DNA of 64,000 bases, taken from NCBI GenBank assembly GCA_050950765.1, contig JBMNIF010000003.1:32001-96000 (forward strand), in the 5' to 3' direction. Of this stretch, positions 5,175-56,983 are shown in pieces. Each line of letters begins with the position of its first letter. The first letter of the stretch is position 1. This stretch comes from Bdellovibrionota bacterium (lineage in GTDB: Bacteria > Bdellovibrionota_C > UBA2361 > JAAYZI01). Below the pieces are notes generated by a model. The model searched no databases, had not been told where the DNA came from, and worked only from the letters and a program-made list of their open reading frames with translations. Made by a program: the position numbers and the translations under genes.

Positions 5175-5269
5175 TTTTTTATATTACTTTTGACATACAC
5201 ATACAGTTTTTTATTCATTCAATATGATTGATCTCCTGTATCGTATATTTAAAAGGACTTGGAAATAAG

Positions 5270-6502
5270 ATGAATAAATATGCAAATTTTGAGAATTATC
5301 TAAAAGAGTATCCAACAAAAGATGGTAGGTTTGGTGAATACGGTGGTGTTTATTTACCACCAGAGTTAGTCACTCCTTTTGATGAGATAGATAAAGCTTA
5401 TAAGACGATCTGTCACAGTGCGCAGTTTATCAATGAGTTGCGCCGCATTAGGAAGGAGTTTCAAGGTCGCCCTACCCCTGTCTACCACTGCGAAAGGCTT
5501 TCAAGAAAACTCGGTAGTTGTCAGATCTACCTTAAGCGTGAGGACTTAAACCATACCGGTGCACATAAATTAAACCACTGTATGGGAGAAGGACTTTTAG
5601 CTAAATACATGGGGAAGAAAAAGTTGATCGCTGAAACAGGCGCAGGGCAACACGGTGTGGCTTTGGCTACGGCTGCAGCCTTTTTCGGATTAGAGTGTGA
5701 AATCCATATGGGAGAGGTTGATATCGCTAAACAGGCTCCTAACGTTGCTAGGATGAAAATTCTTGGAGCGGAGATCGTCCCTGTTTCTTTTGGTTTAAAA
5801 ACTCTTAAGGAGGCAGTTGATTCAGCTTTTGAATCTTATTTAAAACAGTACGAGACAGCTATCTATTGTATCGGCTCTGCAGTGGGACCACATCCGTTTC
5901 CTTTAATTGTTCGTGACTTTCAGATGGTTGTTGGCATTGAAGCTAGAGAGCAGTTCCTCGATATGACCGGTCTCTTTCCAGATGCGATAGCGGCTTGTGT
6001 TGGTGGTGGATCTAATTCCATAGGGATGTTTGTTCCCTTCTTAAGTGATCCTGTTGAGATATACGGGGTTGAGCCGTTAGGTAGAGGAAGTAATCCAGGA
6101 GACCATGCGGCATCTATGACTTACGGTAAAAAGGGTGTTTTACACGGCTTTGAGAGTTACCTTCTACAAGATGAGAAGGGAGATCCTCTGCCTGTACACT
6201 CAATCGCTAGCGGTCTTGATTACCCAGCGGTAGGACCTGAGCACGCCAACCTACACGATCTGAATAGGATTAACTACGTAGGTGTTACAGACTTGGAAGC
6301 TATTGAGGCATTCTTCCTTTTAAGCCGTTATGAAGGGATCATTCCAGCAGTTGAAAGCGCTCACGCTCTTGCTTATGCGCTTAAGGTTGCCAGAGAAGGT
6401 AAACACGATTCAATCCTAGTCAATCTTTCGGGGCGTGGAGATAAGGACATGGATTATGTTATTGAACATTACGGTTATGGTGAAGAGTATATACTTCCAT
6501 AA
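5270..6502 (+). CDS. trpB: Tryptophan synthase beta chain (no adjacent trpA); ATG at 5270 preferred over TTG at 5228
   Basis: [12 protein letters not shown] (PLP lysine), [34 protein letters not shown]. Confidence 0.93.
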
Positions 6503-6526
6503 GTTTAAGATTCTGAAGTGATTTTC

Positions 6527-6555
6527 TGCCCCTTTGTAATATTTATAAAGGGGCA
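6527..6555. terminator. Hairpin between convergent trpB and fliD
   Basis: TGCCCCTTT...AAAGGGGCA inverted repeat with T-rich flank. Confidence 0.6.
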
Positions 6556-6624
6556 TTTTAGCATAAATCATCAATGCTCTTACCTCTCTTCTGATTTTTT
6601 AAAAAAAGAAAAACTTTCTAAAGA

Positions 6625-8034: not shown

Positions 8035-8255
8035 AAGTACGTATCCTTCTTAGAAGATATTCATCGAGGGAGGTGTATAATTTTTGCCGAATGCGATAAA
8101 AATTTTTCTGATACAGAGCTCCTCAACCTTATCTGTGCAAGGATTAAGCCATGATTAACAACTGGAATTTATTATGATTTTTTATAGCAGGCTTATCGAA
8201 AGAGGCAGAAAATGCCCTCTTTTAGAAAGAATAGAATGCTATTTTAAAAAAACCC

Positions 8256-8282
8256 TTAAGTCTTAAATATTTTTGTCGATAT
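8256..8282 (+). promoter_or_regulatory. Putative sigma28 (FliA) promoter for fliD copy 2
   Basis: TTAAGTCT-N11-GTCGATAT compared with the consensus TAAAGTTT-N11-GCCGATAA; lies ~80 bp upstream of a flagellar late gene. Confidence 0.6.
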
Positions 8283-8364
8283 AAATTAGTAATGGATTGT
8301 GAAACCGTTCTCTTTTTAGGGACGGTGTGTGCCACGTCAGATAAGACGCGTAACAGGAGGTTGT

Positions 8365-9768
8365 ATGGCAACGATGACTTTTTCGGGGTTAGCATCAGGT
8401 ATAGATACAGCATCATTGATTGAAGCGACTATTGCACAGAAACGAGCAGTTCGCATTAAACCACTAGAAACGAAGATCTCCCAGTATCAAGAAACAAACT
8501 CTGCTTACACTGAACTAAAAAAACTCCTCCAAAACCTAAAAGATTCAGCAGACAAATTTAGAACGATTAAAGGAAGCGGCGTTGCTATGGAAGTTTATTC
8601 AAGCGACGAAACGGTTTTAACAGCTACGATAGGTGGAAGCGCCACAGCAGGTAATTACGAAATTATAGCGCAGCAATTAGCAAGAAATGGAAACTTTTCT
8701 TTTGCCTCTTCAGGGCGTACTTACACCTCTCTTGATGCTGCAATCAATCCTGATATTTCAAGCGGAGGTTCCGTAGCAGATAGGAGTGTTAATTTTACCA
8801 TAGGAAGTGGCGCCTCTGCTGAAAATATAAATATTGAGGTGACGGGTTCTACCACACTGGCACACTTTGTTTCAGAGTTTAATTCACAAAGTGAGTCTGC
8901 TACTGCTTCAATAATCAACAAAGGAACAACAAGTAATCCTAATTATGTTGTGATGGTCTCCTCTAAAAATGAAGGAATGGAGAAAGGTAGCATTACTGTT
9001 ACTGTCGGAGCTGCTATCTTGAACTCTGGAGAGGGAGCATTTAATGATAATACGGCTTCTGAAGCGCAGGATGCGGTATTTTCACTATCTGGTATCGGAG
9101 GCACTATCACTCGTCAATCAAATACTATTAACGATGTTATTGCAGGAGTGAGTTTTAAACTTCAACAGCAAGGATCTAGCACTATATCAATCGGCATTGA
9201 TAACGATACAACTACTGAATATCTTCAAGATCTGATCGATTCTTACAATGAGATTGTGGAGTATATCACGGAAAATGATCGCGTTTCTGAAGAAGATAAT
9301 AGTATCGTTTACGGGAGCCTTTCAAAAACTTCACTTGATGAGAATATTTTAAGTACATTAAGATCTGCTTTGAGTACACTTTCTGGTTCAGGCTCAATTC
9401 ATATCCTAGCTGATTTAGGAATCACCACTAAAAGAGATGGAACCTTAGCATTCGATAAAGATCTCTTCGTGGATGCAATAGAGAAAGATGGAAGTGGTGT
9501 GGCTACAATTTTACAAAATATGGGAGATACCTTAGCAAACACGGGTGGAATAATTGATCGTTTTACCTCTTTTAACGGATTATTGGATAGCGCAGTGAAC
9601 TCAAACTTATCATCAATTACTAGGTTTAATGAGCGTATCTCTGTCTTAGAAGGACAGCTTTCAAGAGAAGAACAATCTCTTACTAACCGTTTTGCACAAC
9701 TGGAAGCGCTACTAGGCAATTTGCAGCAACAACAAACCTCCCTAAGTGCGCTCTTGCCTATGAAATAA
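8365..9768 (+). CDS. fliD: Flagellar filament cap protein FliD (copy 2); start at ATG 8365 after AGGAGG
   Basis: FSGLASGIDT, SNTINDVIAGVSF, LGITTKRDGTL, RFAQLE; clearly paralogous to copy 1. Confidence 0.9.
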   Translation: MATMTFSGLASGIDTASLIEATIAQKRAVRIKPLETKISQYQETNSAYTELKKLLQNLKDSADKFRTIKGSGVAMEVYSSDETVLTATIGGSATAGNYEIIAQQLARNGNFSFASSGRTYTSLDAAINPDISSGGSVADRSVNFTIGSGASAENINIEVTGSTTLAHFVSEFNSQSESATASIINKGTTSNPNYVVMVSSKNEGMEKGSITVTVGAAILNSGEGAFNDNTASEAQDAVFSLSGIGGTITRQSNTINDVIAGVSFKLQQQGSSTISIGIDNDTTTEYLQDLIDSYNEIVEYITENDRVSEEDNSIVYGSLSKTSLDENILSTLRSALSTLSGSGSIHILADLGITTKRDGTLAFDKDLFVDAIEKDGSGVATILQNMGDTLANTGGIIDRFTSFNGLLDSAVNSNLSSITRFNERISVLEGQLSREEQSLTNRFAQLEALLGNLQQQQTSLSALLPMK

Positions 9769-9820
9769 TTTAAGCTTATTTAAGATCTTGTAGGGATCTT
9801 AACGGTAAAACTTTTTTATA

Positions 9821-10621
9821 TTACTGTAATGGCTTAAATGAGGTCAGCTTTGTTTTTACACTACCGATAAAGACTTCACTTCTAATCAGTAAGATATCTC
9901 TAGCCGTATCCGTAGTTAGGTAGATAGAAGCGTCTCTTAATTTATTTTTTTCGTTTTCAAACCCTAGCTTTTTCACACGAGGTTTAATTACCCATGTCTC
10001 ATAAAGTTTACCGTTATGTTTTATTTTTTCTTTCCCTGCTGCAGAGAGCGCTACTAGATAACGGTTTTGTCCTTCATAAGCGTCAAAATATTTAGTATCT
10101 CCCACACTCCAATCAAGGCTACGTGCGATAAAAGCGGCTGAAAACGGATCTAAGGTAAAGTTGTGTGGGTTAAATTTAAATTTTTCAATATTTCCGTTTT
10201 TGTTACGGATAACCGAGATCTCACCATCAGGGTGAAAACTAAGATCCATATTTCTGATCCGTGATTTCTCATTTTTATTAAAGAATGAATGTTTGGGTGT
10301 CATTTTTGATGCCGATAATACCGCTTCGGCGTGGTAACGTAATTTATAAAAGATATCGATAGCTTTTAAAGTTCTAACTCTGATTATTACCTTTAAGGTA
10401 TCACCCTTTTTTTTTACAACTGCGCTAGCTCTTGCTGCAGGGATCCCTTGCCATGAAACATCATAGGTATATCTGCCGAGTGCTGGGGCAAAGGCATCTG
10501 CTTTATATTCATAGTGTGGTGTTGATAACTCTATCTCTTCAGTTGGGATATCTTCTTCTGCCAAGACAGGAGAGTAAAATAAAAACATAAAGAGTAGTGT
10601 TACACCGTAATAAAATCTCAT
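9821..10621 (-). CDS. Exported protein, DUF3108-like
   Basis: Signal peptide; YDVSWQGIPA, DPFSA and beta-rich pattern typical of DUF3108. Confidence 0.65.
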   Translation of the reverse strand: MRFYYGVTLLFMFLFYSPVLAEEDIPTEEIELSTPHYEYKADAFAPALGRYTYDVSWQGIPAARASAVVKKKGDTLKVIIRVRTLKAIDIFYKLRYHAEAVLSASKMTPKHSFFNKNEKSRIRNMDLSFHPDGEISVIRNKNGNIEKFKFNPHNFTLDPFSAAFIARSLDWSVGDTKYFDAYEGQNRYLVALSAAGKEKIKHNGKLYETWVIKPRVKKLGFENEKNKLRDASIYLTTDTARDILLIRSEVFIGSVKTKLTSFKPLQ

Positions 10622-28544: not shown

Positions 28545-29453
28545 TTATTTCGATTTCCCATCCGTTAACCAAGATCTAATCCTATTTAGATTATCGTTTA
28601 GCTCATCCCTCTTTTCAATTTTTAGTTTCTCATTATTTAAGAGAAAGAGAACATTATAGACATCGCCTAATTTTGATTGGTCTAAAATCTGCTCTAAAGT
28701 TATGCCTGCCCCACTTCTTTCATTGTATCTTTTAAGGACACCGTTAAGTATTTCAATATATCCTGGCCAATGTAATGAAATAAACTCGTAAGCTCGACTT
28801 CCGATGCAGGAGCTCCCGAAATCAAAGACACCTATCAACCTATGCTTATCATCTACCAAAGTGTTGCCATAAAAAAAATCTCGGTGTAGTAAAACTGGAT
28901 CCGTAGCCTCATTTAAAACACGTCTGACAACAGTGTAAATTTCCGTTATTTCATCCCTTGAAAAATACTCGATAAACTTCTTTTCAAGAGTTTCTCGAAT
29001 GATATCACCCTGTTCTAATGTTTTAAGTGGAAGAGCTGCATCAAGTTTTTTCAGATCAACTTTGTGTATCTCTGTAAAAAAAGATGCGATATCATCGCAA
29101 AAAGCATCTTTTGCAACACTTGATAAAGCGTTGTAAGTATTGCAATCCCACTTTAAACCACAAATCATAACGTGTATTGCGTACTTTATTTTTTCAGTTT
29201 TACAAACTTTAGTGTGGGGGATCGGAACTGAAATCTTCCCTTTTAAAAAATCTAACAATTTAGCTTCTCTTTCATACTGTGCAGTATCACCAGATCGAGG
29301 AACTCTAATAATCTGCGGAGGTTCGTCCCCTCTCGATAGGGAAAAAGCGATGCTACTCCAACCATCCCCTTCTAGCTTCACCTCACTATTAGGGAAGATC
29401 TCTTCTATAATCTTTTGGAGTCGTAACTCTTCTACTTTTTTTGCGTCTGACAT
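28545..29453 (-). CDS. Aminoglycoside-phosphotransferase-like (APH/choline kinase fold) protein
   Basis: GDGWSS loop, IIRVP, EAKLL, HRDF..GN, GVFDFG. Confidence 0.8.
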   Translation of the reverse strand: MSDAKKVEELRLQKIIEEIFPNSEVKLEGDGWSSIAFSLSRGDEPPQIIRVPRSGDTAQYEREAKLLDFLKGKISVPIPHTKVCKTEKIKYAIHVMICGLKWDCNTYNALSSVAKDAFCDDIASFFTEIHKVDLKKLDAALPLKTLEQGDIIRETLEKKFIEYFSRDEITEIYTVVRRVLNEATDPVLLHRDFFYGNTLVDDKHRLIGVFDFGSSCIGSRAYEFISLHWPGYIEILNGVLKRYNERSGAGITLEQILDQSKLGDVYNVLFLLNNEKLKIEKRDELNDNLNRIRSWLTDGKSK

Positions 29454-33250: not shown

Positions 33251-34297
33251 TTACTGTCTCTCTGGACGTAATTTTCTAACCTGTTGACCAGTACGCCAAA
33301 CTTCCAGATTTCCAAGCTCTTCCAACTCTTTTGAGAGTTTCTCACGATAATCAGGTTTACTATTGGCAGCAATTGTAATCCTCGCCTCATTCCCACTACG
33401 CACACTCTCGTATAGTTCTTCAAAGACGGGAGCAACAGCATCTCTAAAACGGTTTTTCCAATCTAAAGCACCACGTTGCGCAGTTGTTGAGCAGTTGGCA
33501 TACATCCAATCCATACCGTTCTCACCAACCAACGGAAGTAGACTTTGAGTGAACTCTTCAACAGTTTCGTTAAAAGCTTCACTGGCAGAGTGTCCGTTCT
33601 TACGGAGTAAATTATACTGCGCTTCAATAATACCTGCTACGGCACCCATCAAAACACCCCGTTCGCCAGTTAAATCACTGTAAACCTCGTGCTGCATATC
33701 TGTCTTAAAAAGATAGCCAGATCCGATCCCAACACCTATCGCAAAAACTCTTTCTTGAGCTTTACCTGTGGCATCTTGGTAGATAGCAAAACTGGAGTTG
33801 ATACCCCTACCAGCTACAAAGAGTGTTCTAACAGTACGACCTGAACCTTTCGGAGCAACTAAACCAACATCTATATCAGCAGGTGGAATAACACCCGTTT
33901 GATCTTTATATGTGATAGCAAAGCCGTGCGCAAAGATTAAAGCCTTTCCTGCCGTCAAACCTGCCTTTACAGTCGGCCACTGATCAATCTGACCAGCATC
34001 AGAAAGGAGATTGATAATAATAGTCCCCTTTTTAACGGCTTCCGCTACTGGAAATAAGGTCTCACCAGGTTTCCAGCCATCGTTAATGGCTTGTTGCCAC
34101 GATTTTCCACCTTCTCTCTGACCTACAATTACATTAAAGCCGTTATCTCTTAAATTTAAAGACTGCGCAGGTCCCTGTACTCCGTAACCAATAACAGCAA
34201 TAACATCATCTTTTAGAACGGAACGTGCTTTATCTAAAGAAAATTCTTTGCGAGTGACAACTTCCTCTTCCATGTCACCAAAAGTCATTTTAGCCAT
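33251..34297 (-). CDS. ilvC: Ketol-acid reductoisomerase; start probably ATG 34297
   Basis: IGYGVQG, VAPKGSG, SDLTGERGVLMG, NCSTTAQRGALDW. Confidence 0.95.
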   Translation of the reverse strand: MAKMTFGDMEEEVVTRKEFSLDKARSVLKDDVIAVIGYGVQGPAQSLNLRDNGFNVIVGQREGGKSWQQAINDGWKPGETLFPVAEAVKKGTIIINLLSDAGQIDQWPTVKAGLTAGKALIFAHGFAITYKDQTGVIPPADIDVGLVAPKGSGRTVRTLFVAGRGINSSFAIYQDATGKAQERVFAIGVGIGSGYLFKTDMQHEVYSDLTGERGVLMGAVAGIIEAQYNLLRKNGHSASEAFNETVEEFTQSLLPLVGENGMDWMYANCSTTAQRGALDWKNRFRDAVAPVFEELYESVRSGNEARITIAANSKPDYREKLSKELEELGNLEVWRTGQQVRKLRPERQ

Positions 34298-34476
34298 AAT
34301 ATCTCCTCTCACTTACTGAGGGTTTACTATTCTTAAGGCAGTAAGCCCAACACAATAATTAAGTAACCTCCATGCCCCTCATAGTCATGAACATTACCCT
34401 TAAAAACACACAGAATCGTACTTTGAAAAGTACGTTTTAGCAAGTAAGGAGCAGATCCTTAAATAAACCCTTTTTA

Positions 34477-34657: not shown

Positions 34658-36485
34658 CCTGAATTCCCGCGAAATTATACCATACAAACGTGTTTTTAAA
34701 GGTAGCTTTCGAGCGGTATAATCTTACTTTTTCTTAAAAATACTTTTTAGAAAGTCATCTTCTTCAATATTGAAAATTTTCAAAATATCCTTTTGTTTTT
34801 TTGTTAACGGAACCATTAATTTACTGCCATTTTTAGTTTCTATAACTTTAATTTTTTGAAGCTCTTTAATGACATCAGGTATATTAAACTTTTTTTGCCT
34901 TGTATCATTTTTAAGTAAATTAAGAATATAACTTCTAAGTATAAGAGCTAAAAATCCAACAAAAAGTTTTCCTTCTGTGGTTTGAAGATTATGTGTTTTA
35001 AGTCTTCTAAAATCAATTTCATTTTTTAGCTGGAAAAATTGTTTTTCAATTACATCTTTTTGACGATAACGAAAAAGTGCTTCACTCGGATTTGAATCAC
35101 AACCAATACCAATCAAAATTAAGAAGCCACAATTTCTCAAGTATTCATCTATAGCTTCTGATTTTTTTTCATAAGTGAAACCATCTTCATTTATTTTAAT
35201 ATCAAAATATTTCCTATATTTTTTACGATCCAGCAAAGAGTATTTTAATTTTTTCAGTTCTTCTAACTCTTCTTCCATTCTAGAAATTTTCTCGTAAAAT
35301 TGAACTATCTCATATGGCGCCTTTCCCATATTGTAATAAACATAAATCTTTACAGGTTGTCCCATAACAGTATCTATTACAGAACAACCAAAAGTAGAGG
35401 TTCCTTTTATATAATTAGCATCTTGCTTAATAAGTGCAGTGTGATTTTCTAATATTCTTTTAGCGTCATTCCAATATAGTGGCAAAGGACAAAGTAGTCC
35501 AAACTTTTGCCCTTCTTCATTTGCTACTTCCGCTAAATTATCTTGCGTCACAAAACCTTGATCCGTAACAAGGTTAATACGATTATTAAGACTAATAAAT
35601 GGAAAGTCTCTTAAAAGAAAACTAAAATATGTCTTATCTGTAATGCTGCCATTATAAACTTGATAGAATAAAGGAAGCTTCGTTGTAGAGCCGTAGCACA
35701 TACCTATATTTATTTGCGGCAATTTATCCATATCCCTATTATAGCCAAACTCCAATATGCTTATTTTTTTACTATAAGAAGATATGGAAGTTACGTCATA
35801 ATACCAACATTCTTGAGCTAAATATCGCTTCGTCCATTTCTTAAAAAAATTAAGTCTTTTCTCGTAGTCAATACGTTCAAAAAGACGACTTATTTTTTGA
35901 CTTGTTAATTCAGAAATTTCATATGGTAAGACACTATCATCTATCCAACTTGAAGCATGTGATACTACATTTCCATTTGCTAGAATATAAAACGCTAAAG
36001 TTAAAATCTCGTATGTGTCATTTCCAAAAATTGAAAGCAATGTCTTGTCTAACCTTAAATCTTTTACAATCTTATTTAAAACATAAGTAAGACCAAAAGA
36101 TTTATTGCTAATAACATATCTATTAGAATCATCTGGAAACAAATCATAGTAATTTCTATTAGGAATTAATTTCTTACCGCTTTCATCTAGCTTCCCTATA
36201 CCTATTTCATCAAACGTAGGCTCTCCATTTTCACGACGAAAGTTCATCCTGTAATAGATATAAGTAGTCCCATTTTTGTTTTTCTTACGAGCAATTTGCC
36301 TATCTGGTAAGTCAACTTTTTTAGTTATTTTTTTCATAAAAAACCTCCCTAATATGTATAGGGCAATCATACCATACAAACAGGAAATGTCAATATAGAA
36401 AAATATATAACTAACTAAAATATCAATAAAAAATACGGTGGCTTATTTCTGGAATGGAGAAAAGATAAAAATTGCGGAATTTAGG
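34658..36485 (-). mobile_element. IS1634-family insertion sequence (1828 bp)
   Basis: Imperfect terminal IRs CCTGAATTCCCGC (34658) and GCGGAATTTAGG (ending 36485); 6-bp target duplication TTACCT at 34652-34657 and 36486-36491; single DDE transposase. Confidence 0.9.
34724..36337 (-). CDS. IS1634-family DDE transposase; start probably ATG 36337 after GGAGG
   Basis: YYDVTSISSYS, FGYNRD..LPQIN, TDQGF, YRQKDVIEKQF..LK. Confidence 0.9.
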   Translation of the reverse strand: MKKITKKVDLPDRQIARKKNKNGTTYIYYRMNFRRENGEPTFDEIGIGKLDESGKKLIPNRNYYDLFPDDSNRYVISNKSFGLTYVLNKIVKDLRLDKTLLSIFGNDTYEILTLAFYILANGNVVSHASSWIDDSVLPYEISELTSQKISRLFERIDYEKRLNFFKKWTKRYLAQECWYYDVTSISSYSKKISILEFGYNRDMDKLPQINIGMCYGSTTKLPLFYQVYNGSITDKTYFSFLLRDFPFISLNNRINLVTDQGFVTQDNLAEVANEEGQKFGLLCPLPLYWNDAKRILENHTALIKQDANYIKGTSTFGCSVIDTVMGQPVKIYVYYNMGKAPYEIVQFYEKISRMEEELEELKKLKYSLLDRKKYRKYFDIKINEDGFTYEKKSEAIDEYLRNCGFLILIGIGCDSNPSEALFRYRQKDVIEKQFFQLKNEIDFRRLKTHNLQTTEGKLFVGFLALILRSYILNLLKNDTRQKKFNIPDVIKELQKIKVIETKNGSKLMVPLTKKQKDILKIFNIEEDDFLKSIFKKK

Positions 36486-36747: not shown

Positions 36748-37242
36748 TTACTTTCTAATAGCAATTCGTCCTGATTGAATAAACTCCGTCACCCCATACT
36801 GCTCCATAATACAGTAAAAAGAACGGATCTCACTTGAAGAGCCGGTCACCTCTAAAACCATCGATTCCTGCTCTACGTATACAACGTGCGCCCCGTACCG
36901 CTTGGCGTGTTTTTCAACTTTAAAACGTTCAGCGCTCGACTCGGTCTTGACTCGGATAAATGAGATCTCTTTATAGATCAACTCTTCATCAAGGGAAGCA
37001 TAGGCATCTTTTACCTCAACGATTCTCAAGATCTGTTTTATAATAGTCTGAATCAGGTCTTCATCAACAATTACAACAATGGTAAATCTTGAAATTCCAC
37101 GTTGCTCGGTTTCTGAAACAGTTAGACTCTCTATATTTAATTTGCGTTTTGTGAATGTTGTAACTAAGCGGTGTAATACACCAGGACTATTCTCTGTAAA
37201 CGCTGAAATAGTGTATGTTTTCTGATCTTTCATAGCTTTCAC
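36748..37242 (-). CDS. ilvN: Acetolactate synthase small (regulatory) subunit
   Basis: ACT motif ENSPGVL...RKLNIESLTV, SGRIAI; directly downstream of ilvB. Confidence 0.92.
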   Translation of the reverse strand: MKAMKDQKTYTISAFTENSPGVLHRLVTTFTKRKLNIESLTVSETEQRGISRFTIVVIVDEDLIQTIIKQILRIVEVKDAYASLDEELIYKEISFIRVKTESSAERFKVEKHAKRYGAHVVYVEQESMVLEVTGSSSEIRSFYCIMEQYGVTEFIQSGRIAIRK

Positions 37243-37244
37243 CC

Positions 37245-38957
37245 CTACTCCAATCTGATATCAGTAACACCGGCTCCGGCGGGAATCATCGGGAAAACCG
37301 AATCTTCATTAGCGACTACAACATCGAGTAGATAGGGGGCGTTAGAGTTTAACATCCTATCTAAAGCCTGATCCAAATCTTGGCGTTGATCTATACGCTC
37401 CGCTTTTAAACCGAAACCCTCTGCAATTTTCACAAAGTCAGGATTAACGAGGTTTACAGCCGAATAACGTTTTTCATAAAAGAGATCCTGCCACTGCCTA
37501 ACCATACCGAGAAAGCTATTATTCAAAAGGAGAATTTTTATAGGTAATTTCTCCTGAGCGATCGTTGCTAGCTCTTGAATCGTCATCTGAATGCCGCCAT
37601 CTCCAACGATAACAACAACACTCCTTTCAGGAGCCCCGATCTTAGCACCTACCGCCGCTGGTAAGGCAAACCCCATCGTCCCTAACCCCCCCGAGCTGAT
37701 AAAGCTGTTGTTCTTTGTAAAACAATAATAGTGCGTAGCACACATCTGATGCTGCCCAACGTCCGCTACAATTAAAGCTTCACCATTAGTTTTTTCTGAA
37801 AGTCTGTTAATAACCTCCATCATGCGCATCTCATCGCAATGCGGATGAATAGCTTCAGCCGTGACCTTCTCATATTCAACTTGGTCTAATTTTTTAAACT
37901 CCTCCAACCACTCTTTATGTTCCCTTTTTTGCACAAACGGGAGTAACCCTTCTAAGGCATCTCCAGCGTCTGCTACAATCGGGATAGAAGCTTTAACGAT
38001 CTTATCAATCTCTGCTGGATCGATATCAATATGCACCACCTTAGCTTTAGGAAGGTATCCGGAGAGGTTCATCGTAACTCGATCATCAAAACGCATTCCG
38101 ACAGCAATCACTAAATCAGATTTATTGCACAACATATTCACGGAATAATTCCCGTGCATCCCTAACATTCCAACATTTAACGGGTGATCGTATGCCAAAG
38201 AGGAGAGTCCGTGAAAGGTAAAAGCTACGGGAATTCCCGTTTTTTCAACGAATTTTTTCAAAATATCTTCAGCTTTGGAGATGCGCACCCCCTGCCCTGC
38301 AAAAAGCATAGGTTTTTTCGCAGTATTTACCAAAGCAGCCACCTCTTTTAAGACCTCATCCTGCAGATCAGATTTAAGTTGCGTGTTAACAATTTTTACA
38401 AGGTGACACTCCGCCTTAGCTACCTGTGCATCCTTAGTAATATCAACTAAAACTGGTCCAGGACGACCTGAGGTCGCAATATGAAAAGCCTTAGCAATCG
38501 TTGACGGTATCTCTGAAGGACGTGAGACTTGAAAATTCCATTTTGTGATCGGAATCGTAGCACTGATAATATCAGTTTCCTGAAAAGCATCACTCCCGAG
38601 TAGCGAACTCCCTACCTGCCCCGTAATACACACGATAGGAACTGAATCCATCATGGCATCAGCGATCCCTGTAATTAAATTCGCTGCACCAGGACCGGAA
38701 GTGGCAAAGCAAACGCCAACCTTGCCTGCAGCACGAGCGTACCCTTCAGCAGCATGCGCAGCCCCTTGCTCATGTCGAACTAGGATATGACGTAGTTTGT
38801 CACTGTAATCGTACAAGGCATCGTAAATAGGGATAACACTACCACCAGGATAACCGAAAATAGTATCGACACCTTCTGCAATTAGTGCCTGCATCAGAGC
38901 ATGAGAACCTGAAAGTTCACCCAAGCTTTCTCCTATCTGTTTTTCTATCAATGTCAT
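37245..38957 (-). CDS. ilvB: Acetolactate synthase large subunit
   Basis: FGYPGG, RHEQGA, TSGPGA, GMHG, RFDDRV, TPP motif GDGG...NN. Confidence 0.96.
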   Translation of the reverse strand: MTLIEKQIGESLGELSGSHALMQALIAEGVDTIFGYPGGSVIPIYDALYDYSDKLRHILVRHEQGAAHAAEGYARAAGKVGVCFATSGPGAANLITGIADAMMDSVPIVCITGQVGSSLLGSDAFQETDIISATIPITKWNFQVSRPSEIPSTIAKAFHIATSGRPGPVLVDITKDAQVAKAECHLVKIVNTQLKSDLQDEVLKEVAALVNTAKKPMLFAGQGVRISKAEDILKKFVEKTGIPVAFTFHGLSSLAYDHPLNVGMLGMHGNYSVNMLCNKSDLVIAVGMRFDDRVTMNLSGYLPKAKVVHIDIDPAEIDKIVKASIPIVADAGDALEGLLPFVQKREHKEWLEEFKKLDQVEYEKVTAEAIHPHCDEMRMMEVINRLSEKTNGEALIVADVGQHQMCATHYYCFTKNNSFISSGGLGTMGFALPAAVGAKIGAPERSVVVIVGDGGIQMTIQELATIAQEKLPIKILLLNNSFLGMVRQWQDLFYEKRYSAVNLVNPDFVKIAEGFGLKAERIDQRQDLDQALDRMLNSNAPYLLDVVVANEDSVFPMIPAGAGVTDIRLE

Positions 38958-42802: not shown

Positions 42803-44017
42803 TTACTTATCGGTCAAAGCAACAACACCTGGAAGCGCCTTTCCTTCTAAGCATTCAAGGCTAGCACCACCACCCGTTGAGATATGAGACATCTTAGGTG
42901 CTAAACCTGATTGATTTACAGCTGCTGCAGAATCGCCACCACCGATAATTGTAATAGCAGAGCTATCAGCGAGGATCTGTGCAATGGCAAACGTCCCCGT
43001 AGCAAAAGCTTTCTTTTCAAAAACTCCCATTGGACCGTTCCAAACAACGGTCTTAGCAGTAGTTAAAACGGTCTTAAACTCGGCAATAGTTTTTGGTCCG
43101 ATATCAAGCCCCATCTGATCTTCAGCGATCTTATCAACAGTTGCTTCAGCCTCTTCAACATCAAAGCTCTTAGCTACCACATGATCGATCGGCAGTAGTA
43201 ATTTAACTCCTTTCCCTGCTGCCTTTGCCAAGATCTCTTTAGCAAGATCTACCTTATCCTCTTCTACACGGCTAATACCGACGCTCTCACCCTTTGCCTT
43301 TAAAAAGGTGTACGCCATAGCACCACCGATAATTAAAGCATCGACCTTCGTTAAGAGATTGGTAATGACTTCAATCTTATCCGAAACTTTAGCACCCCCT
43401 AAAATTGCAACAAAGGGACGCTCTGGTGCTTCAAGTACCTTACCGAAATATTCGATCTCTTTTTGCATTAAAAAGCCGCAAGCGTTTTGAGAGAAATGTT
43501 TCGTTAAACCTTGCGTTGAAACGTGTGCACGGTGTGCCGTTCCAAAAGCATCATTGACATACATATCACCGAGGGCTGCAACCTCTTTGGTAAAGTTATC
43601 GATCTTTTGCTTTGTGGCATCATCTTGCTTAGCGTATTTATCAAGTAATTCCTCTTCAGGGTGAAAACGCATATTCTCAAGTAAAACCACATCCCCATCT
43701 TTCATCTCGTCAACGATCTTTTTTGTTGCAGAACCGATACAGTCGGGTGCCATTGTAACCTCTTTACCGAGCAATTCAGAGAGACGTTCCGCTGTTGGTT
43801 TTAAGGTAAACTCAGGAGCAACACCTTTAGGACGTCCAAGGTGACTCATTAAAATCAATTTACCGCCACGCTCAATGACAGATTTAATACTCGGCAAAGC
43901 AGCAACAATTCTAGTGTCATCACTTACCTTACCGTCCTTAATGGGGACATTAAAATCCACCCGCATTAAAACTTTTTTGCCACAAACATCGAGATCCGCT
44001 ACTGATAATTTATTCAT
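42803..44017 (-). CDS. pgk: Phosphoglycerate kinase
   Basis: [48 protein letters not shown]. Confidence 0.98.
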
Positions 44018-44443
44018 CTTTACCTTTTTTCTCTTTCAATAATTAAATATAACTTTAAAACAGATAGAACTGAGGTTGTCTTTTCCCCAATCTATCGTTT
44101 TTTATTAGCGCTTACCAGCCGTCAAGACACAGAAGCACCTTTACACATACAGTTTCTTTATAAAAGCGACATCTACGGCATAAACTCCTCGTCTATACAC
44201 CATCATACCGCTACACTTAATAGTTAAGTTATATTCAAAGTGTGGACAATTAACAATCACCTTTAAAGATTAAGCTACACCCCCTAAGATCTTTCAGACT
44301 CGACACTTTAAAGGTTTTTAGATATCCTTCTTAGGATCAGGTAAGCAATCTTAAAACTCTTGCGCTTGATAACTACTAAAGTTTCTATTAAATTTGTCTT
44401 AATAAATTTAATAGGTATAAAACTAAAAATAAGGAGAACACTT

Positions 44444-44980
44444 ATGGACTTTTTTGAAGTTATAGAGAAGAGACACAGTTATCGAGGTAAATTTAAAGAT
44501 ACTCCTGTTAGTAGAGATGACTTAAATAAGATCCTTCAAGCTGGCATCTCTGCCCCCTCCGGTTGTAATGCACAAACAACTACCTTTATCGCCGTAGACG
44601 ATCCGCAAGTGCTTTCAAAGATAAAGGAGGTTGCTGGAGAAAGTACTGCTATAAAAACAGCGCAAGCCGTTATCGCCGTGCTTATAGATACCACACCAAA
44701 AGCAGTATATAACGGGATGTCGTTTCAGGTAGAAGATGCCTCTGCTGCCGTTCAAAATATCTTACTTGCAATTACTGCTTTAGGATATTCTACGGTTTGG
44801 ATTGATGGCTGGTTACGGTGTAATGATAACGGTGCAAAAATCGCTGATATCTTGAAGGTTCCACAAGAAAAAACGGTAAGAGTTCTGCTTCCGATCGGAG
44901 TTGCAGCAGAAACGGTGTCGAGGGCAAAGAAGCGTCCCCTAGCAGAGCGTGTTTCTTATAATGAATATAAGGGCGCTTAA
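44444..44980 (+). CDS. Nitroreductase family protein; start ATG 44444 after AAGGAG
   Basis: RHSYR, APSGCNAQ, QNILLA..ALG. Confidence 0.88.
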   Translation: MDFFEVIEKRHSYRGKFKDTPVSRDDLNKILQAGISAPSGCNAQTTTFIAVDDPQVLSKIKEVAGESTAIKTAQAVIAVLIDTTPKAVYNGMSFQVEDASAAVQNILLAITALGYSTVWIDGWLRCNDNGAKIADILKVPQEKTVRVLLPIGVAAETVSRAKKRPLAERVSYNEYKGA

Positions 44981-45018
44981 ATATCTGTAAGAGAGCCTAA
45001 TAAGAATTAAAAAATGAA

Positions 45019-45065
45019 AGGCACGGAAGTCTTTCAATTGAGAGTTTAAAAAACCTTCCGTGCTT
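45019..45065 (-). terminator. Terminator-like hairpin of array unit 1 (copies at 45808-45854 and 46481-46529)
   Basis: GCACGGAAG...CTTCCGTGC stem followed on the minus strand by TTTCATTTTTT. Confidence 0.7.
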
Positions 45066-45117
45066 GTAATTGCCGAAACCGTTTAGGTTCCGAGAGTAAC
45101 CGCGCGACGTTTACGCA

Positions 45118-45561
45118 TTAGAGCCTTACGAGTGGCAAGACCTCCTCTGGGAAGATTTTGAGGATAGCCTCAATGAAGCTAAGCAGTTCCTGATAACTTG
45201 GTCTCGATTTTGAGTCAGAGTTAGGCAAAGACACACCCTTGATGTGTTTTTTACTCCACACCGCGTCGGGTTCAATGCACTCCTCAATCAGATCCTGATA
45301 AGGCTTCTTCATGGCGTTAATCAAAAACAGCATGAAGTCAGGTTTGTCCCCGTACTCTTTGAGTAACTCCGCTATCGCAGTTGTAAGGTCTTTGTTCATG
45401 AAACATTTACGCAGATCCTCTGCGAGACCATCCGGCAACTCTTCACCAGCTAAAAAGCAACTATGGGCATTCCCAAGACCGTGCTCATTAAGCCATTCGA
45501 AGCAGGCGGGGTTAACAAACACCTCAAGCGGCACCCAAAAGCCTGTTTGAGCAGCACTCAT
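45118..45561 (-). CDS. Hypothetical protein, array paralogue 1 (147 aa)
   Basis: AAGGAG RBS 9 nt before ATG 45561; shares GEELPD.L..LR.CF and IFPEEVLPLVRL motifs with paralogues. Confidence 0.75.
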   Translation of the reverse strand: MSAAQTGFWVPLEVFVNPACFEWLNEHGLGNAHSCFLAGEELPDGLAEDLRKCFMNKDLTTAIAELLKEYGDKPDFMLFLINAMKKPYQDLIEECIEPDAVWSKKHIKGVSLPNSDSKSRPSYQELLSFIEAILKIFPEEVLPLVRL

Positions 45562-45743
45562 CTGGCAATCTCCTTTTCCAACTAAAGCCATCAGACACCA
45601 AAACCTCTCTAAAAAAACAGAGACACAACCGTTATGTCTTGTGAAAGACTTCCTGCCTGAATAAAAAACATTAAAAAATGTTAATTACTCAGGCAAAAAT
45701 TAAATCTTCTACTGTATCAATTGTTAATTAAAGCGATCACCGG

Positions 45744-45772
45744 ATCTTACTGTTTTAAAAAACCTAAAGCAA
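45744..45772 (-). promoter_or_regulatory. Sigma70 promoter, unit 1
   Basis: TTGCTT-N17-TAAGAT on the minus strand. Confidence 0.65.
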
Positions 45773-45906
45773 TTTTAAAGGATCTTTAATAAGAATAAAA
45801 AAAATGAAAGGCACGAAAGTCTTTCAATTGAGAGTTTAAAAACCTCCGTGCCTTGTAATTGCCGAAACCGTTTAGGTTTCGAGAGTGACCGCGCGACGTT
45901 TACGCA

Positions 45907-46239
45907 TTAGAGCTTTACGAGTGGCAAGACCTCGTACGGAAAGATCGCGCGAAAAGTGCATTCAACGTTTAAATCGTACTAGCGCTCTTCGATGACGCGA
46001 GACAAAAACTGCGGAAAGTCACGTTCAGTCGCCTCGGGGAATCTTATGCAGAAAATTTCTGCATAGCAAGCGACTAAAACTTTTAGCTCGGCTTGGAGTT
46101 TTTCGTTTGAGAAACAACCACGCAGTCTTGCTACTAAGTCATCCGGCAACTCTTTGCCATTTGAAAAGTGCTCAAAAGCCAGCCGAAGGTCACTTTCGTG
46201 GAGCCTAAAGCAACCACAAGGATCATTTTTCTTTTCCAT
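45907..46239 (-). pseudogene. Array paralogue 2, interrupted by an in-frame TAG (45979-45981): 86 aa, or 110 aa if read through
   Basis: GGGGAG RBS before ATG 46239; GKELPDDLVARLRGCF; after the TAG the frame reads YDLNVECTFRAIFPYEVLPLVKL*, homologous to the paralogue 1 C-terminus. Confidence 0.7.
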
Positions 46240-46417
46240 TGGGCAAACTCCCCATATGAAGTTATCAGGCACAAAAACCTCTCTAAAAAAACAGAGACAC
46301 AACCGTTATGTCTTGTGAAAGACTTCCTGCCTGAATAAAAAACATTAAAAAATGTTAATTACTCAGGCAAAAATTAAATCTTCTACTGTATCAATTGTTA
46401 ATTAAAGCGATCACCGG

Positions 46418-46446
46418 ATTTTACTGTTTAAAAAAACCTAAAGCAA
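46418..46446 (-). promoter_or_regulatory. Sigma70 promoter, unit 2
   Basis: TTGCTT-N17-TAAAAT on the minus strand. Confidence 0.7.
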
Positions 46447-46555
46447 TTTTAAAGGAGCTTTAATAAAGATTAAAAAATGAAAGGCACGGAAGTCTTTCAA
46501 TTGAGAGTTTAAAAAACCTTCCGTGCCTTGTAATTGCAGAGAGTGGTTGCGTATC

Positions 46556-46978
46556 TTAGTCGCACAATCTCATCTTTTTCCAGACATTCTCTGGGAAACA
46601 TCTTGCGATGATACCAAGAATATCACGCAGTTCTTCAAGCTGAGCATCTTCAAGCGGCGATAGAACCCTCCCGCATTCAACCAGTGTTGAAGGATCCCTT
46701 ATAAGGAGATCGATCTCCTCAATCGGTTCCTTATAAAGCGTCAGTATCGCCGTAATCAGATAGCGTGAAAATTCGTCTGCGGTCGTTTCGGATGAGTCTT
46801 TACAGAATTGCTTAATGAGGCTACTTACCTCATCAGCGTTACTGTTTCTTGCCAAAGAATTAATCAGCTCTCGAGTGGTAGCTTCCGGTAATTCTTTATT
46901 CCTTTTACAGCACTTAAAAGCTTCGCGTAGAATCCTATCTAGATCGTCTTCCATAGAAGCTCTCATAGAAGCTTTCAT
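46556..46978 (-). CDS. Hypothetical protein, array paralogue 3 (140 aa)
   Basis: AAGGAG RBS 9 nt before ATG 46978; KELPE, LITAI..LYKEPIEE and CFPENV align with paralogue 1. Confidence 0.72.
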   Translation of the reverse strand: MKASMRASMEDDLDRILREAFKCCKRNKELPEATTRELINSLARNSNADEVSSLIKQFCKDSSETTADEFSRYLITAILTLYKEPIEEIDLLIRDPSTLVECGRVLSPLEDAQLEELRDILGIIARCFPENVWKKMRLCD

Positions 46979-47158
46979 AGAAGTACTCCTTTTCCAGCTG
47001 AAGTTATCAGACACCAAAACCTCTCTAAAAAAACAGAGACATAACCGTTATGTCTTGTGAAAGACTTCCTGCCTGAATAAAAAACATTAAAAATGTTAAT
47101 TACTCAGGCAAAAATTAAATCTTCTACTGTATCAATTGTTAATTAAAGCGATCACCGG

Positions 47159-47187
47159 ATTTTACTGTTTAAAAAAACCTAAAGCAA
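47159..47187 (-). promoter_or_regulatory. Sigma70 promoter, unit 3
   Basis: TTGCTT-N17-TAAAAT on the minus strand. Confidence 0.7.
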
Positions 47188-47277
47188 TTTTAAAGGATCT
47201 TTAATAAGAATTAAAAGGCACTCGAGGCTCCTTAAGATCTAGTCTTTATTTTTTAAAAAGATAATTAGTTCAATTGG

Positions 47278-48057
47278 TTAATTCTGATTTAGAAGCCAGA
47301 TCTGTAACATCCCCTTTATCGTAATATCAGGGTCGTAGATTATTTTTTCATCAATATCTTGATTTAGACGTTCCGTAATAACACCCCCCAAGCCTCCCGT
47401 TGATATGATATAAGGTATCTCACCGATCTCTCTTTTAAAACGTTCAATCAAGCCTGCAATCAAGCATTCATAACCTATCATAGTACCCGCCTGCATGGCA
47501 GAAACTGTGTTACGACCGATCACACTATCCGGAAAGACCCTCTCAATTCGTGGCAATTTGGCAGTTTTGCTAACTAAAGCATCTAACGCTATCTCTAAAC
47601 CTGGGGCTATCACACCTCCGATATAACTTCCAGCGCTATCAATGTAATCGATAGTTGTGGCGGTTCCAAAATCTACCACCAAAGCAGGAAGCCCATAAAA
47701 ACACTTAGCGGCAACAGCGTTCGCTATCCTATCAGATCCAACAGCCGCTGGATCGTTCTGCTTAATTAAAACTCCTGTCTTTACCCCTGGACCAACTATT
47801 AGCGGCTCGATGGCGAATTCATCAGCAATTAAAGTGCTAAATAATGTAGTTAATGGTGGAACTACGCTGGCAATAACAGCACCAGCACACTTAAAATCAC
47901 CGTTAAAACGTTTCTGCAAAAGAGAAACGAGGGTCACATTGTATTCATCACGAGTTCTGCGCAGATCAGTACAAAGCCGACATTCACAGATCAATTTATC
48001 CCCTTTAAAACAACCAACGATTATATTTGTATTTCCGATATCAACAGTTAATAACAT
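47278..48057 (-). CDS. coaX: Type III pantothenate kinase
   Basis: DIGNTN, ASVVP, VGSDR, DFGTATT, GGVIAPG. Confidence 0.95.
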   Translation of the reverse strand: MLLTVDIGNTNIIVGCFKGDKLICECRLCTDLRRTRDEYNVTLVSLLQKRFNGDFKCAGAVIASVVPPLTTLFSTLIADEFAIEPLIVGPGVKTGVLIKQNDPAAVGSDRIANAVAAKCFYGLPALVVDFGTATTIDYIDSAGSYIGGVIAPGLEIALDALVSKTAKLPRIERVFPDSVIGRNTVSAMQAGTMIGYECLIAGLIERFKREIGEIPYIISTGGLGGVITERLNQDIDEKIIYDPDITIKGMLQIWLLNQN

Positions 48058-48160
48058 CGTTTTTATCCCCTAGTTTTAGCAGGTCTCTTGATCTGAATAT
48101 CAAAACTTATAAAAGCCATTAAAAAATCTAAATCACTTTTAATCTTGTATTTAATTAAAA

Positions 48161-48937
48161 CTAAAACCGTTCCGAAAGTAAATCTCCAGACAAAACTTTT
48201 GTTAACTTACCACCTGTTTTAAGTAGTAATGCCCCCGTCTGATCGACCCCTTCAAAGATTCCGTTAAGAAAGCCGTGTGGTGTTCTTACCCTAATCTCTT
48301 TTTTTAGACAAAAAGCATTTGCAAGCCATTTATCCCTAAATTCTCCAAATCCGACCTCACAAAACTTATGCCATGAATTAGCTAACTCTAGTGAGAGGTT
48401 AGCTGCAACCTCCTCTAATTTAAAATCAAACACACCGAGATCTTCTAAAGAGATAGCTTCCGGTACAGGCGCTGTTTTTAAATCCAACCCTATCCCTACC
48501 ATAATGGCATAGCCGTTCTTTACCCGTTTTGTTTCAATCAGAACACCTGCCAACTTCTTGCCACTCTTTGTCATAACATCATTTGGCCACTTTAATCCGA
48601 TGCCATCAATCCCAAGCACTGCCATAATGCAGTTTCCAACTACAAGTGAAAATCCCCCACAATTTTTCGGCAACTTTTCACACCTAATCACAAGGGTCAG
48701 ATAAAGATTGCCGTCGCCAGAGTTCCACTCTCGACCACTACGACCACGTCCTGCAGTTTGTGTGTCTGCAATAACAACCCCGATCGTATCGTTCTCCAGA
48801 TCTTCTGCTAGGAGCGAAGCTTCATCCATAGTTGAAGCAACACAATCAAACCAGTAGACCCTCCACTTATTAAGTTCGCTACAAGAGTTATCGTTCAATT
48901 TGTTGCGTAAAAGATCTTCTTTTATTGATATTCTCAC
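48161..48937 (-). CDS. birA: Biotin-[acetyl-CoA carboxylase] ligase (no HTH domain)
   Basis: QTAGRGRSGREW, KWPND, KLAGVLIE, GVDQTGALL. Confidence 0.9.
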   Translation of the reverse strand: MRISIKEDLLRNKLNDNSCSELNKWRVYWFDCVASTMDEASLLAEDLENDTIGVVIADTQTAGRGRSGREWNSGDGNLYLTLVIRCEKLPKNCGGFSLVVGNCIMAVLGIDGIGLKWPNDVMTKSGKKLAGVLIETKRVKNGYAIMVGIGLDLKTAPVPEAISLEDLGVFDFKLEEVAANLSLELANSWHKFCEVGFGEFRDKWLANAFCLKKEIRVRTPHGFLNGIFEGVDQTGALLLKTGGKLTKVLSGDLLSERF

Positions 48938-49007
48938 GACTCTAATTATACCTATCTAAAATATATTCAGTTTATCCCTTTTATTTTGTAAATTATGCCA
49001 CCTAAGA

Positions 49008-56209: not shown

Positions 56210-56983
56210 TTATTCTCTAGCAGCAACACTTTTTAATCCGAGAAAACCAGGAGCGCTCATCATCACTTTTGAGTTTCTATTTCCAACTTGCGCTAAGGCG
56301 TTGGCGCTGGAAAAGCTTAAGAGATGAAATTTAATGTGTGGCCACATCTTTTTAAAATATAAAACAGAATCTGAATAATATGAGAGATCGAAAACTCTAA
56401 AACCGTATTTTTCAACGAGATCTGGGATGGCACTTTTTCGATACGGTGTCTTATCCATAGTAGTCGGAATAGCCACAGCACCAACAGCATCGATCTTTGA
56501 GAGCACCTCTTCAAAGGGACGCTCCAGTAAATAATTAGCGTTACCGGCAGCGCTTTCAGGAACTCCTAAATCTCTTAAAAACTCCTCAACTTCTTTACTT
56601 CTAAAACTATCTGGGAAAAGACACAACAAAAGCACATCATTACACCCTGCCATAACACATCTGATAACGACTCCAGGGATAACTGTTACAGGAGTAGTTT
56701 TGGCGGCTTCTCTAACACGGTCGATATAACAACCGGTAAAATAGTCCGTCACTGCAATCACATCGAGCCCCTTAACCTTTGCTAGGCGCACCAAAGCTGG
56801 TGCAGTATCGATCCCTTCAAGCGCCATATACCCGAGTGAGGATGGACTATGGATACGTAGATCCATAACATACCCTTTCTTAGTGCCTTCATGTTCGATC
56901 TTGGCAGACAACTTACTCTTATTCGTATTACTCCCACTCTTTTCGATTTTTATCTGTTCTCTTAATGCACTTTTTTTTGTCAT
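56210..56983 (-). CDS. PHP-fold protein with degenerate metal ligands
   Basis: DLRIHS, AKVKGLDVIAVTDY, VIPGVVI match the PHP fold, but several His/Glu ligands are replaced. Confidence 0.7.
   Translation of the reverse strand: MTKKSALREQIKIEKSGSNTNKSKLSAKIEHEGTKKGYVMDLRIHSPSSLGYMALEGIDTAPALVRLAKVKGLDVIAVTDYFTGCYIDRVREAAKTTPVTVIPGVVIRCVMAGCNDVLLLCLFPDSFRSKEVEEFLRDLGVPESAAGNANYLLERPFEEVLSKIDAVGAVAIPTTMDKTPYRKSAIPDLVEKYGFRVFDLSYYSDSVLYFKKMWPHIKFHLLSFSSANALAQVGNRNSKVMMSAPGFLGLKSVAARE

Follow-up and report, generated by a model that had tools for sequence, protein, structure and literature searches.

Can the regulatory DNA around a set of tandem genes stay almost invariant while the genes that it encloses are saturated with change? 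This question is raised by a small array in a 64,000-nucleotide stretch of a Bdellovibrionota bacterium genome (GenBank assembly GCA_050950765.1, contig JBMNIF010000003.1, positions 32,001 to 96,000 of the forward strand). This stretch is called the window, and coordinates refer to it unless another contig is named. Three head-to-tail units lie on its minus strand, bounded by coaX (47278-48057, minus strand) and a nitroreductase gene (44360-44980, plus strand). Every copy reads in the same order: TTGCTT, 17 nt, TAA(A/G)AT, a leader of about 175 nt, a Shine-Dalgarno sequence (SD), an open reading frame (ORF), a short trailer, a long-stem hairpin and a T-run. The non-coding part is referred to here as the frame. 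A first-pass annotation, made from the sequence alone, had located three tandem units, and repeat families together with an alignment found them in the same places:

46461..47218, minus strand: unit u3, a complete frame and ORF, beside coaX (repeat families D1/D2, alignment)
45787..46477, minus strand: unit u2, a complete frame around a decayed ORF (repeat families, alignment)
44998..45803, minus strand: unit u1, a complete frame and ORF, beside the nitroreductase gene (repeat families, alignment)

The frames and the ORFs differ greatly in how well they are conserved, as the annotation had claimed. By BLAST, the upstream blocks are 95.6% identical over 275 nt between u1 and u2, 96.1% over 232 nt between u1 and u3, and 96.8% over 219 nt between u2 and u3, whereas the three ORF pairs are only 44.7-58.1% identical in nucleotides. 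The proteins agree at 41/99, 32/128 and 24/97 aligned residues (25-41%), and blastp E values of 6e-9 to 1e-3 mark the ORF pairs as remote paralogues. Fourfold-degenerate sites are alike at 9/15, 6/11 and 4/8 in the three pairs, and conservation is lowest at the third codon position of each pair (0.52, 0.39 and 0.34, compared to 0.46-0.62 at positions 1 and 2). Across the three copies, variable columns number 2/139 in the leader core, 8/65 in the promoter part, 9/71 in the shared terminator block and 15/32 beside the SD. A leader no more alike than the synonymous sites of the ORFs, which the annotation had named as the outcome that would count against it, is thus not what these figures give.

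Since the flanks are about 96-99% alike and the synonymous sites of the ORFs are saturated, flanks and ORFs have had different histories. The flanks would be either far younger than the ORFs or homogenized. Recent duplication followed by rapid amino-acid change was excluded because third codon positions are the least conserved and fourfold sites are saturated. The ORFs are real genes, as judged by these third positions, by alleles that keep their length and by AlphaFold2 (AF2) models that are confident helical bundles. The three ORFs are as follows:

46556..46978, minus strand: u3 ORF, 140 aa, predicted all-helical orphan protein (AF2 pLDDT 78.7, pTM 0.73, from a very shallow alignment)
45907..46239, minus strand: u2 ORF, read as decayed, 86 codons to an in-frame TAG (45979-45981) and then 23 in-frame codons
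45118..45561, minus strand: u1 ORF, 147 aa, predicted five-helix orphan protein (AF2 pLDDT 78.1, pTM 0.74, from a very shallow alignment)

Where u2 has its TAG, u1 and u3 both have a Tyr codon (TAT) in a gap-free alignment. The reading frame past it ends like u1 (EVLPLVKL), and about 41 codons are absent relative to u1. We read u2 as decayed, with a truncated product possible. The decayed u2 keeps its frame as intact as the other copies do.

What could hold the frames together? The conserved stretch runs without a break over terminator, promoter and leader, includes the spacer DNA from terminator to promoter, and has sharp borders at the SD and near the stop codons. One further tract is shared by two units only:

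44998..45156, minus strand, paired with 45787-45945: u1/u2-only tract, covering the last ~14 codons, the 3' untranslated region and the terminator (91% identical over 161 nt by BLAST)

The remainder of the u1 and u2 ORFs, outside this 161-nt tract, is about 58% identical. We take this stretch to be what remains of a gene conversion that stopped within the ORF. About 300 non-coding bases that are 95-99% identical beside saturated synonymous sites rule out slow drift. The conserved spacer DNA and the intact frame of the decayed u2 make constraint alone implausible, and an intact frame around a decayed ORF is unexpected under selection on each gene's own expression. The sharp borders and the u1/u2-only tract point to recurrent homologous recombination between the units. 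No plausible process other than recombination or gene conversion would keep about 300 contiguous non-coding bases alike. Our preferred explanation, to which we give an even chance, is that recurrent homologous recombination (gene conversion) homogenizes the non-coding frames of old paralogues. The separate histories and the recombination between flanks suggested in the first-pass annotation are supported to this extent by the saturated ORFs and the near-identical frames.

In this model, three distant paralogues would encode small cytoplasmic all-helical proteins and would be transcribed separately from predicted promoters, with u2 decayed. Each gene would have the same cis elements, namely a sigma-70-like promoter, a structured leader of ~175 nt, an SD and a long-stem intrinsic terminator. 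Neighboring units would recombine recurrently, by gene conversion or unequal crossing-over, and conversion tracts would begin in the identical frames and end where ORF divergence starts. The outcome would be divergent proteins under identical cis control. The predicted elements are listed below:

47187-47182 (TTGCTT), 17-nt spacer, 47164-47159 (TAAAAT), minus strand: u3 promoter-like site, read from the sequence
46418..46446, minus strand: u2 promoter-like site, TTGCTT-17-TAAAAT (alignment columns 32-60)
45744..45772, minus strand: u1 promoter-like site, TTGCTT-17-TAAGAT (alignment)
46979..47157, minus strand: u3 5' leader, ~175 nt, AU-rich hairpin at ~47061-47124, SD AAGGAG, fold z = -4.1, 0/200 shuffles as stable
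46240..46416, minus strand: u2 5' leader, the same hairpin at ~46319-46383, SD GGGGAG, fold z = -4.3
45562..45742, minus strand: u1 5' leader, hairpin at ~45645-45709, SD AAGGAG, fold z = -4.9, 0/200 shuffles as stable
46468..46526, minus strand: u3 terminator-like long-stem hairpin and T-run (repeat family D2, 97% identical to the u1 copy)
45794..45853, minus strand: u2 terminator-like hairpin and T-run (repeat family D2)
45005..45063, minus strand: u1 terminator-like hairpin and T-run, stem GCACGGAAGG.../...CCTTCCGTGC, fold z = -3.9

The promoter motif that the annotation had read, TTGCTT-N17-TAA(A/G)AT, is found in 3/3 units. Its -35 element matches the consensus at just 3/6 positions, and a consensus scan did not flag the promoter-like sites. 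The u1 hairpin went unflagged because the terminator scan was limited to loops of 8 nt. We infer promoter and terminator activity from these predicted elements; transcription would begin near 47152 (u3), 46411 (u2) and 45737 (u1).

Another possible explanation for the conserved frames is purifying selection alone, in which every base of the frame is functional, for instance in a riboswitch-like leader or an operator, and no recombination takes place. The leaders fold far better than shuffled sequences, as the z scores above show. In addition, the leader core varies less than the promoter and terminator blocks (2/139 compared to 17/136 columns, Fisher p = 2e-4, with a partition picked post hoc after inspection of the data), and one of the two leader-core changes falls in the hairpin loop. 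Given this greater uniformity, the leader core may be under additional constraint as an RNA or regulatory element. The consistent element of the leader is a ~25-bp AU-rich hairpin, and the structure 3' of it was predicted inconsistently among the three copies, which speaks against selection on the whole frame. So do the conserved terminator-promoter spacer and the frame retained by the decayed u2. To our knowledge, near-identity over ~300 bases exceeds the constraint known for any regulatory RNA. In 43000-49000, no Rfam 15 model came close to its gathering score; within the leader, the top match was mir-754, with 24 bits against a gathering score of 84. We therefore consider selection without recombination unlikely.

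The leader was also sought elsewhere, as the annotation had suggested. BLAST of the whole genome returned three copies, all in the array. Among 40 relatives, BLAST gave only a 41-nt, 84% AT-rich match in genome G019, and a covariance model, run on the order's 90 other genomes, picked up no full-length copy and just one match of hairpin size, in G016; both matches were judged to be chance. A 26-nt leader pattern had 0 matches in metagenome contigs. The leader and the protein family each have three occurrences in the whole genome, which shows that the repeat is no mobile element scattered through it. At its outer ends the array has just half-frames, the leader half by coaX and the terminator half by the nitroreductase gene, and thus the repeat is a tandem-duplication unit rather than an element inserted between genes. 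An insertion like a miniature inverted-repeat transposable element was ruled out by inspection, as terminal inverted repeats are absent from the conserved block and half-frames close the array on both sides. As a side observation, a 20-codon ORF, MFFIQAGSLSQDITVVSLFF, begins in the 3' arm of the leader hairpin (45609-45671, with the equivalent place in u2 and u3). It has no SD in front, and a leader-core substitution turns one of its codons from Val to Met in u3.

A repeat of this kind can also be produced by the assembly itself, through wrong expansion of a single copy or a chimera of strains. This assembly is of metagenomic origin, and the short-read DNA contigs break within the repeats. However, the stretch is present in 20/22 listed runs from 15 studies, all of them digester or bioreactor metagenomes and six of them RNA libraries. 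Two further DNA runs and two RNA runs were compared, and every piece was 100% identical, with no variants, indels or joints. A contig of run X7 (45716-46239) leads from the u1 frame across the u2 terminator into the u2 ORF and so crosses the u2/u1 junction, and other DNA contigs link the nitroreductase gene to the u1 terminator and coaX to the u3 frame. Each unique ORF is thereby joined to its frame on both sides in independent runs. The repeat piece has a depth of 14.6, compared to ~6 for unique pieces. The first-pass annotation had named an assembly artefact as a way in which it could fail; on these short-read data, we regard an artefact as extremely unlikely.

The RNA-library contigs, which come from two studies, contain all three ORFs but show neither strand, ends nor level. 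One reaches 47059, 81 nt 5' of the u3 ATG, and another (45858-46321) covers u2 to 82 nt 5' of its ATG, a reach that would fit a long leader. The ORFs are covered in the RNA runs and the flanking genes (44700-45075 and 47144-47500) are not, a pattern that is unusable as evidence of differential expression. Separately, RNA contigs with adapter letters attached stop at 45122 and 46548, level with the stop codons of u1 and u3 or slightly beyond them. These stops, well ahead of the terminator hairpins, might mark abundant RNA ends or processing sites, although contigs cannot show RNA ends.

If the frames are homogenized in place, the ORFs should have had time to take on the composition of their host. 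The annotation had described the proteins as more GC-rich than the host, and this is true at third codon positions: GC content at these positions (GC3) is 0.544 (u1), 0.491 and 0.414 in the array ORFs, compared to 0.348 +/- 0.045 in 1291 long ORFs of the genome. These values lie 1.5 to 4.4 standard deviations over the genome mean, and the frames are AT-rich like host intergenic DNA. High expression was rejected as the source of the high GC3, since EF-Tu (0.364), GroEL (0.345) and the ribosomal-protein region (mean 0.373), which together span 0.32-0.44, do not show it. Genome-wide, 69/2080 called ORFs have a GC3 of at least 0.46, and they fall in 11 clusters, several of them at local-repeat arrays.

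The design recurs in other arrays of the same genome. Repeats abound in this genome, with 481 local (<5 kb) repeat pairs of at least 120 nt by megablast, many of which are tandem arrays with offsets that are multiples of ~79 nt. A survey found 47 interspersed local direct-repeat pairs; 14 were mostly non-coding with an ORF between them, at about six loci. Two of these loci were inspected; both have housekeeping genes on either side, and in both the upstream blocks are conserved up to just before the start codons.

The first of these, on contig C1 (G000:C1:346573-351198; L024 ~5500-10200), holds a non-coding block of 500-650 nt in four to five copies that are 80-95% identical, each with an orphan ORF behind it, between an hflX-like GTPase gene and a rubrerythrin gene. 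Its ORFs of 172, 156, 286 and 160 aa have a GC3 of 0.47-0.57, belong to no Pfam family and show no blastp similarity among themselves; no Rfam match was found in this array. The second, on contig C2 (G000:C2:625265-628886; L025 ~5200-8900), lies near aminotransferase class IV and gyrB genes. Its upstream blocks are 98-99% identical and end 20-30 nt before the ORF starts, and a conserved downstream block sets in close to the stop codons. The orphan ORFs there (132, 120 and 139 aa) have a GC3 of 0.50-0.54 and no Pfam family, and two of them are 36% identical. Taken together, all seven ORFs of the C1 and C2 arrays have a GC3 of 0.465-0.571, compared to 0.36-0.38 in housekeeping neighbors. One of these ORFs was searched across the order and was found in its own genome only (1/91). 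At least two other arrays of this genome thus share the frame-and-ORF design, and further candidates lie at C1:375691-377645, C2:125757-128118, C2:1206344-1208619, C1:327301-328085 and C1:441909-443523.

These findings bear on a different explanation, akin to the cassette exchange that the annotation had offered as an alternative, in which the frames were recently duplicated and the ORFs were brought in or replaced by homologous recombination, with the frames serving as homology arms. The source would be other strains or elements, whose divergent alleles or paralogues would form the pool, and promoter and terminator would be reused. The high GC3 of the ORFs within AT-rich frames, the same skew in the C1 and C2 arrays, the clustering of GC3-rich ORFs at local-repeat arrays and the mutually dissimilar ORFs between the conserved blocks of the C1 array all fit this explanation, and similar upstream regions before unrelated genes are already known as putative mobile promoters (PMC3575422). 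However, the three ORFs of the locus are homologous and simple tandem duplication accounts for them, the four compared runs hold no variant array, and no donor was found, the family being nowhere else in 1.84 billion representative proteins. Moreover, the u1/u2 tract ends inside the ORF, so recombination is not limited to the frame borders. We consider this turnover of ORFs between fixed frames a possibility, well short of an even chance. A still bolder version would be a genome-wide system of at least three arrays that works without a recombinase. Each array would have a fixed promoter-leader and terminator frame of its own as homology arms, and GC3-rich orphan ORFs, maybe immunity or anti-phage specificity proteins, would be captured, duplicated, lost and exchanged across the population; this seems to us rather improbable.

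Homogenization of the frames by gene conversion remains our preferred explanation, and several of these observations weigh against it. Paralogues that have long been diverging in place should have reached host composition, and a high GC3 that is not seen in highly expressed genes favors import of the ORFs or of the whole array. Conversion among old paralogues needs further assumptions in the C1 array, where the ORFs are mutually dissimilar. The most uniform part of the frame is the leader core and not the center of the conserved block, so selection may contribute. Finally, the comparison consists of three copies from one genome, which give no covariation and little power for a conversion test.

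How far does the family extend? A six-frame search found the proteins in 1/91 genomes of the order, namely their own, in three copies, with u2 reported with one TAG. A profile search of the 1.84 billion representative proteins returned the three proteins themselves and three repeat proteins with 5-6 matching stretches each, which were dismissed as repeat-inflated. The family alignment found no relatives in genome contigs or metagenome contigs. Word-indexed searches did yield three allelic proteins from short metagenome contigs: P0003, 67% identical to u1, and P0004 and P0011, 79% and 73% identical to u3. All three keep their length at this divergence. P0003 had no match in genome contigs, and none in G001, the sole other genome of the same family (85% complete).

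The contigs that bear P0004 and P0011 are 748 and 647 bp, about one unit long, which would fit assemblies breaking at repeated frames in those strains too. Both proteins are identical to u3 at residues 44-81 and differ from it at both ends. Their first helix, AFEHFKNGEELP, is nearer to that of u2, AFEHFSNGKELP (10/12), than to that of u3 in the window, AFKCCKRNKELP. P0004 and P0011 may therefore be mosaics between paralogues.

The searches for a protein family left the ORFs as orphans, in agreement with the annotation, which had recognized none. Pfam, NCBIfam, PADLOC and PHROGs gave nothing meaningful for P0003 or the three ORFs, no Foldseek match in PDB or BFVD reached E <= 0.001, and ESM Atlas returned no usable match. 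Sequence-profile matches in PDB to designed helical repeats (E 1e-5 to 1e-3) were read as composition bias. The best wide matches with VIA-align, Enp1 for u1 (Z 7.1) and the KaiA C-terminal domain for u3 (Z 6.8), are below the noise level for helical bundles, as is a Retron-Eco7 chain (Z 6.0-6.2 for u1 and u3). By inspection, the N-termini hold no signal peptide h-region or lipobox. The immunity, antitoxin or anti-phage role that the annotation had suggested is thus matched by no family, PADLOC system or fold. As a weak guess, the products are putative binding or specificity proteins.

The surroundings of the array are housekeeping genes: dnaE, nadC, pbpC, birA and coaX on one side and the nitroreductase gene, pgk and pfk on the other. 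In an NCBIfam scan of 29 ORFs (27300-63889), neither a recombinase nor a reverse transcriptase was detected, which agrees with the annotation that neither lay nearby. An IS1634-family transposase gene (34727-36379, E 5e-70) lies within this scanned neighborhood; it is placed between ilvB/ilvN (acetolactate synthase, 36751-38957) and ilvC (33254-34312). In relatives, coaX adjoins birA in seven loci; the nitroreductase gene, pgk and an array ORF were absent from the 1.5-kb flanks of these coaX loci, which are too short to judge the downstream content. Two other genes of the window were noted. A 257-aa ORF beside dnaE (56213-56983) has weak N-terminal matches to a TrlF-family AAA-like ATPase (E 6e-15) and to the anti-phage protein Ppl (E 2e-7), both far under the cut-offs. 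A 302-aa kinase-fold protein (28548-29453) has weak matches to aminoglycoside/macrolide phosphotransferases, the best at 49 bits against cut-offs of 205-650, and is not assignable to any resistance family.

This locus reverses the usual order, with non-coding DNA that is almost invariant and coding DNA that is saturated, and it offers a clean natural case of separate histories for regulatory modules and genes in a bacterium. The same design recurs at a minimum of two other loci with unrelated frames, unrelated orphan ORFs and a foreign-looking codon composition, and this recurrence, together with the compositional anomaly, makes the genome worth following up. If ORFs are swapped between fixed frames, the bacterium would have a way to acquire and wire new genes without a dedicated recombinase, and a system of such frame-held cassettes would be functionally integron- or rAID-like but run on homologous recombination. 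If they are not swapped, the locus would document well a case in which concerted evolution is confined to regulatory DNA. The locus also adds an orphan protein fold family and a candidate structured leader, both new and both from an organism that is abundant in digesters.

Among known systems are arrays built by site-specific recombination, and the intergenic blocks could be taken for tyrosine-recombinase sites. Integron cassettes carry the attC core motif GTTRRRY at their borders. Between 44998 and 47218, this motif occurs only at 45220, 45960 and 46675, all inside ORF bodies and none in the conserved blocks. The integron integrase TIGR02249 was found over the cut-off in 0/1 genomes (best 49.8 bits against 265), and the two weak tyrosine-recombinase matches of the genome have no such array alongside. 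Integron arrays and clusters of attC sites lacking integron-integrases (CALINs; PMC4889954) show a likeness in the variable ORFs parted by a repeated hairpin-forming non-coding element. Unlike the promoterless cassettes of integrons, each cassette of the locus has its own promoter-like site, leader and terminator, and its repeat behaves like a unit duplicated in tandem, with half-frames at both ends of the array. The rAID-1 arrays of Bacteroidales (bioRxiv 10.1101/471110) have a XerD-family recombinase gene 5' of them, homology to immunity genes and a skew to low GC. Like them, the locus has co-oriented small genes, repetitive intergenic sequence and a GC content skewed against the host. Unlike them, it has coaX, birA and pbpC upstream and no adjacent XerD-family recombinase, and its skew is a high GC3 rather than a low GC. 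As to homology to immunity genes, the ORFs matched no Pfam, NCBIfam or PADLOC family. A site-specific array is largely refuted and, in our judgment, very unlikely.

Type I toxin-antitoxin loci of the ldr or hok kind encode a small hydrophobic toxin, under about 60 aa, behind a long folded leader. In contrast, the ORFs of the locus are 86-147 aa and are predicted to encode soluble helical bundles, and the only small leader ORF (20 codons) is the one without an SD. For a diversity-generating retroelement, no reverse transcriptase was found among the 29 neighboring ORFs, to which this NCBIfam search was limited, and no repeat pair with adenine-specific differences was found inside the ORFs.

Divergent paralogues behind a shared upstream region reportedly occur in the ospE/ospF-related genes of Borrelia, with their "upstream homology box". 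These genes and the vlp genes of Mycoplasma hyorhinis encode surface lipoproteins of host-associated bacteria and are carried on plasmids or prophages or switch phase through homopolymer tracts in their promoters. The locus differs in that its proteins have no signal peptide or lipobox by inspection, its organism is one of anaerobic digesters and bioreactors, and no length variation was seen in the four compared runs. The vlp genes are divergent paralogous ORFs behind a shared upstream region with a transcript each (PMC10502178). The lpl genes of Staphylococcus aureus have a conserved recombination site in the middle of the ORF, and their intergenic region changes together with the variable ends of the ORF (Tsuru and Kobayashi 2008, PMC2568036). 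They resemble the locus as tandem paralogues in which a conserved segment is the site of homologous recombination and the ORF is not the unit of evolution, but the geometry is inverse, since in the present locus it is the intergenic frame that is conserved and the body of the ORF that varies.

A limited, keyword-based literature search, which does not amount to a claim of absence, did not turn up a two-sided tandem arrangement without a nearby recombinase. Another comparison is with putative mobile promoters, which are defined by at least 80% identity over at least 50 nt, between -150 and -50, within the same genome and before coding sequences that are dissimilar at the nucleotide level; their authors left both recent duplication and selection possible (Nijveen, Matus-Garcia and van Passel 2012, PMC3575422). 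Both parts of this definition describe the locus, given the identity of its leader core and upstream blocks and the low nucleotide identity of its ORFs. The locus differs in that its copies are tandem, its conserved block is much longer (~300 nt) and includes the leader of ~175 nt, its terminator block is conserved too, and its ORFs, unlike unrelated genes, are distant paralogues of each other. That regulatory DNA around divergent genes is reused or evolves in concert is already known, and this locus is a new variant of that kind.

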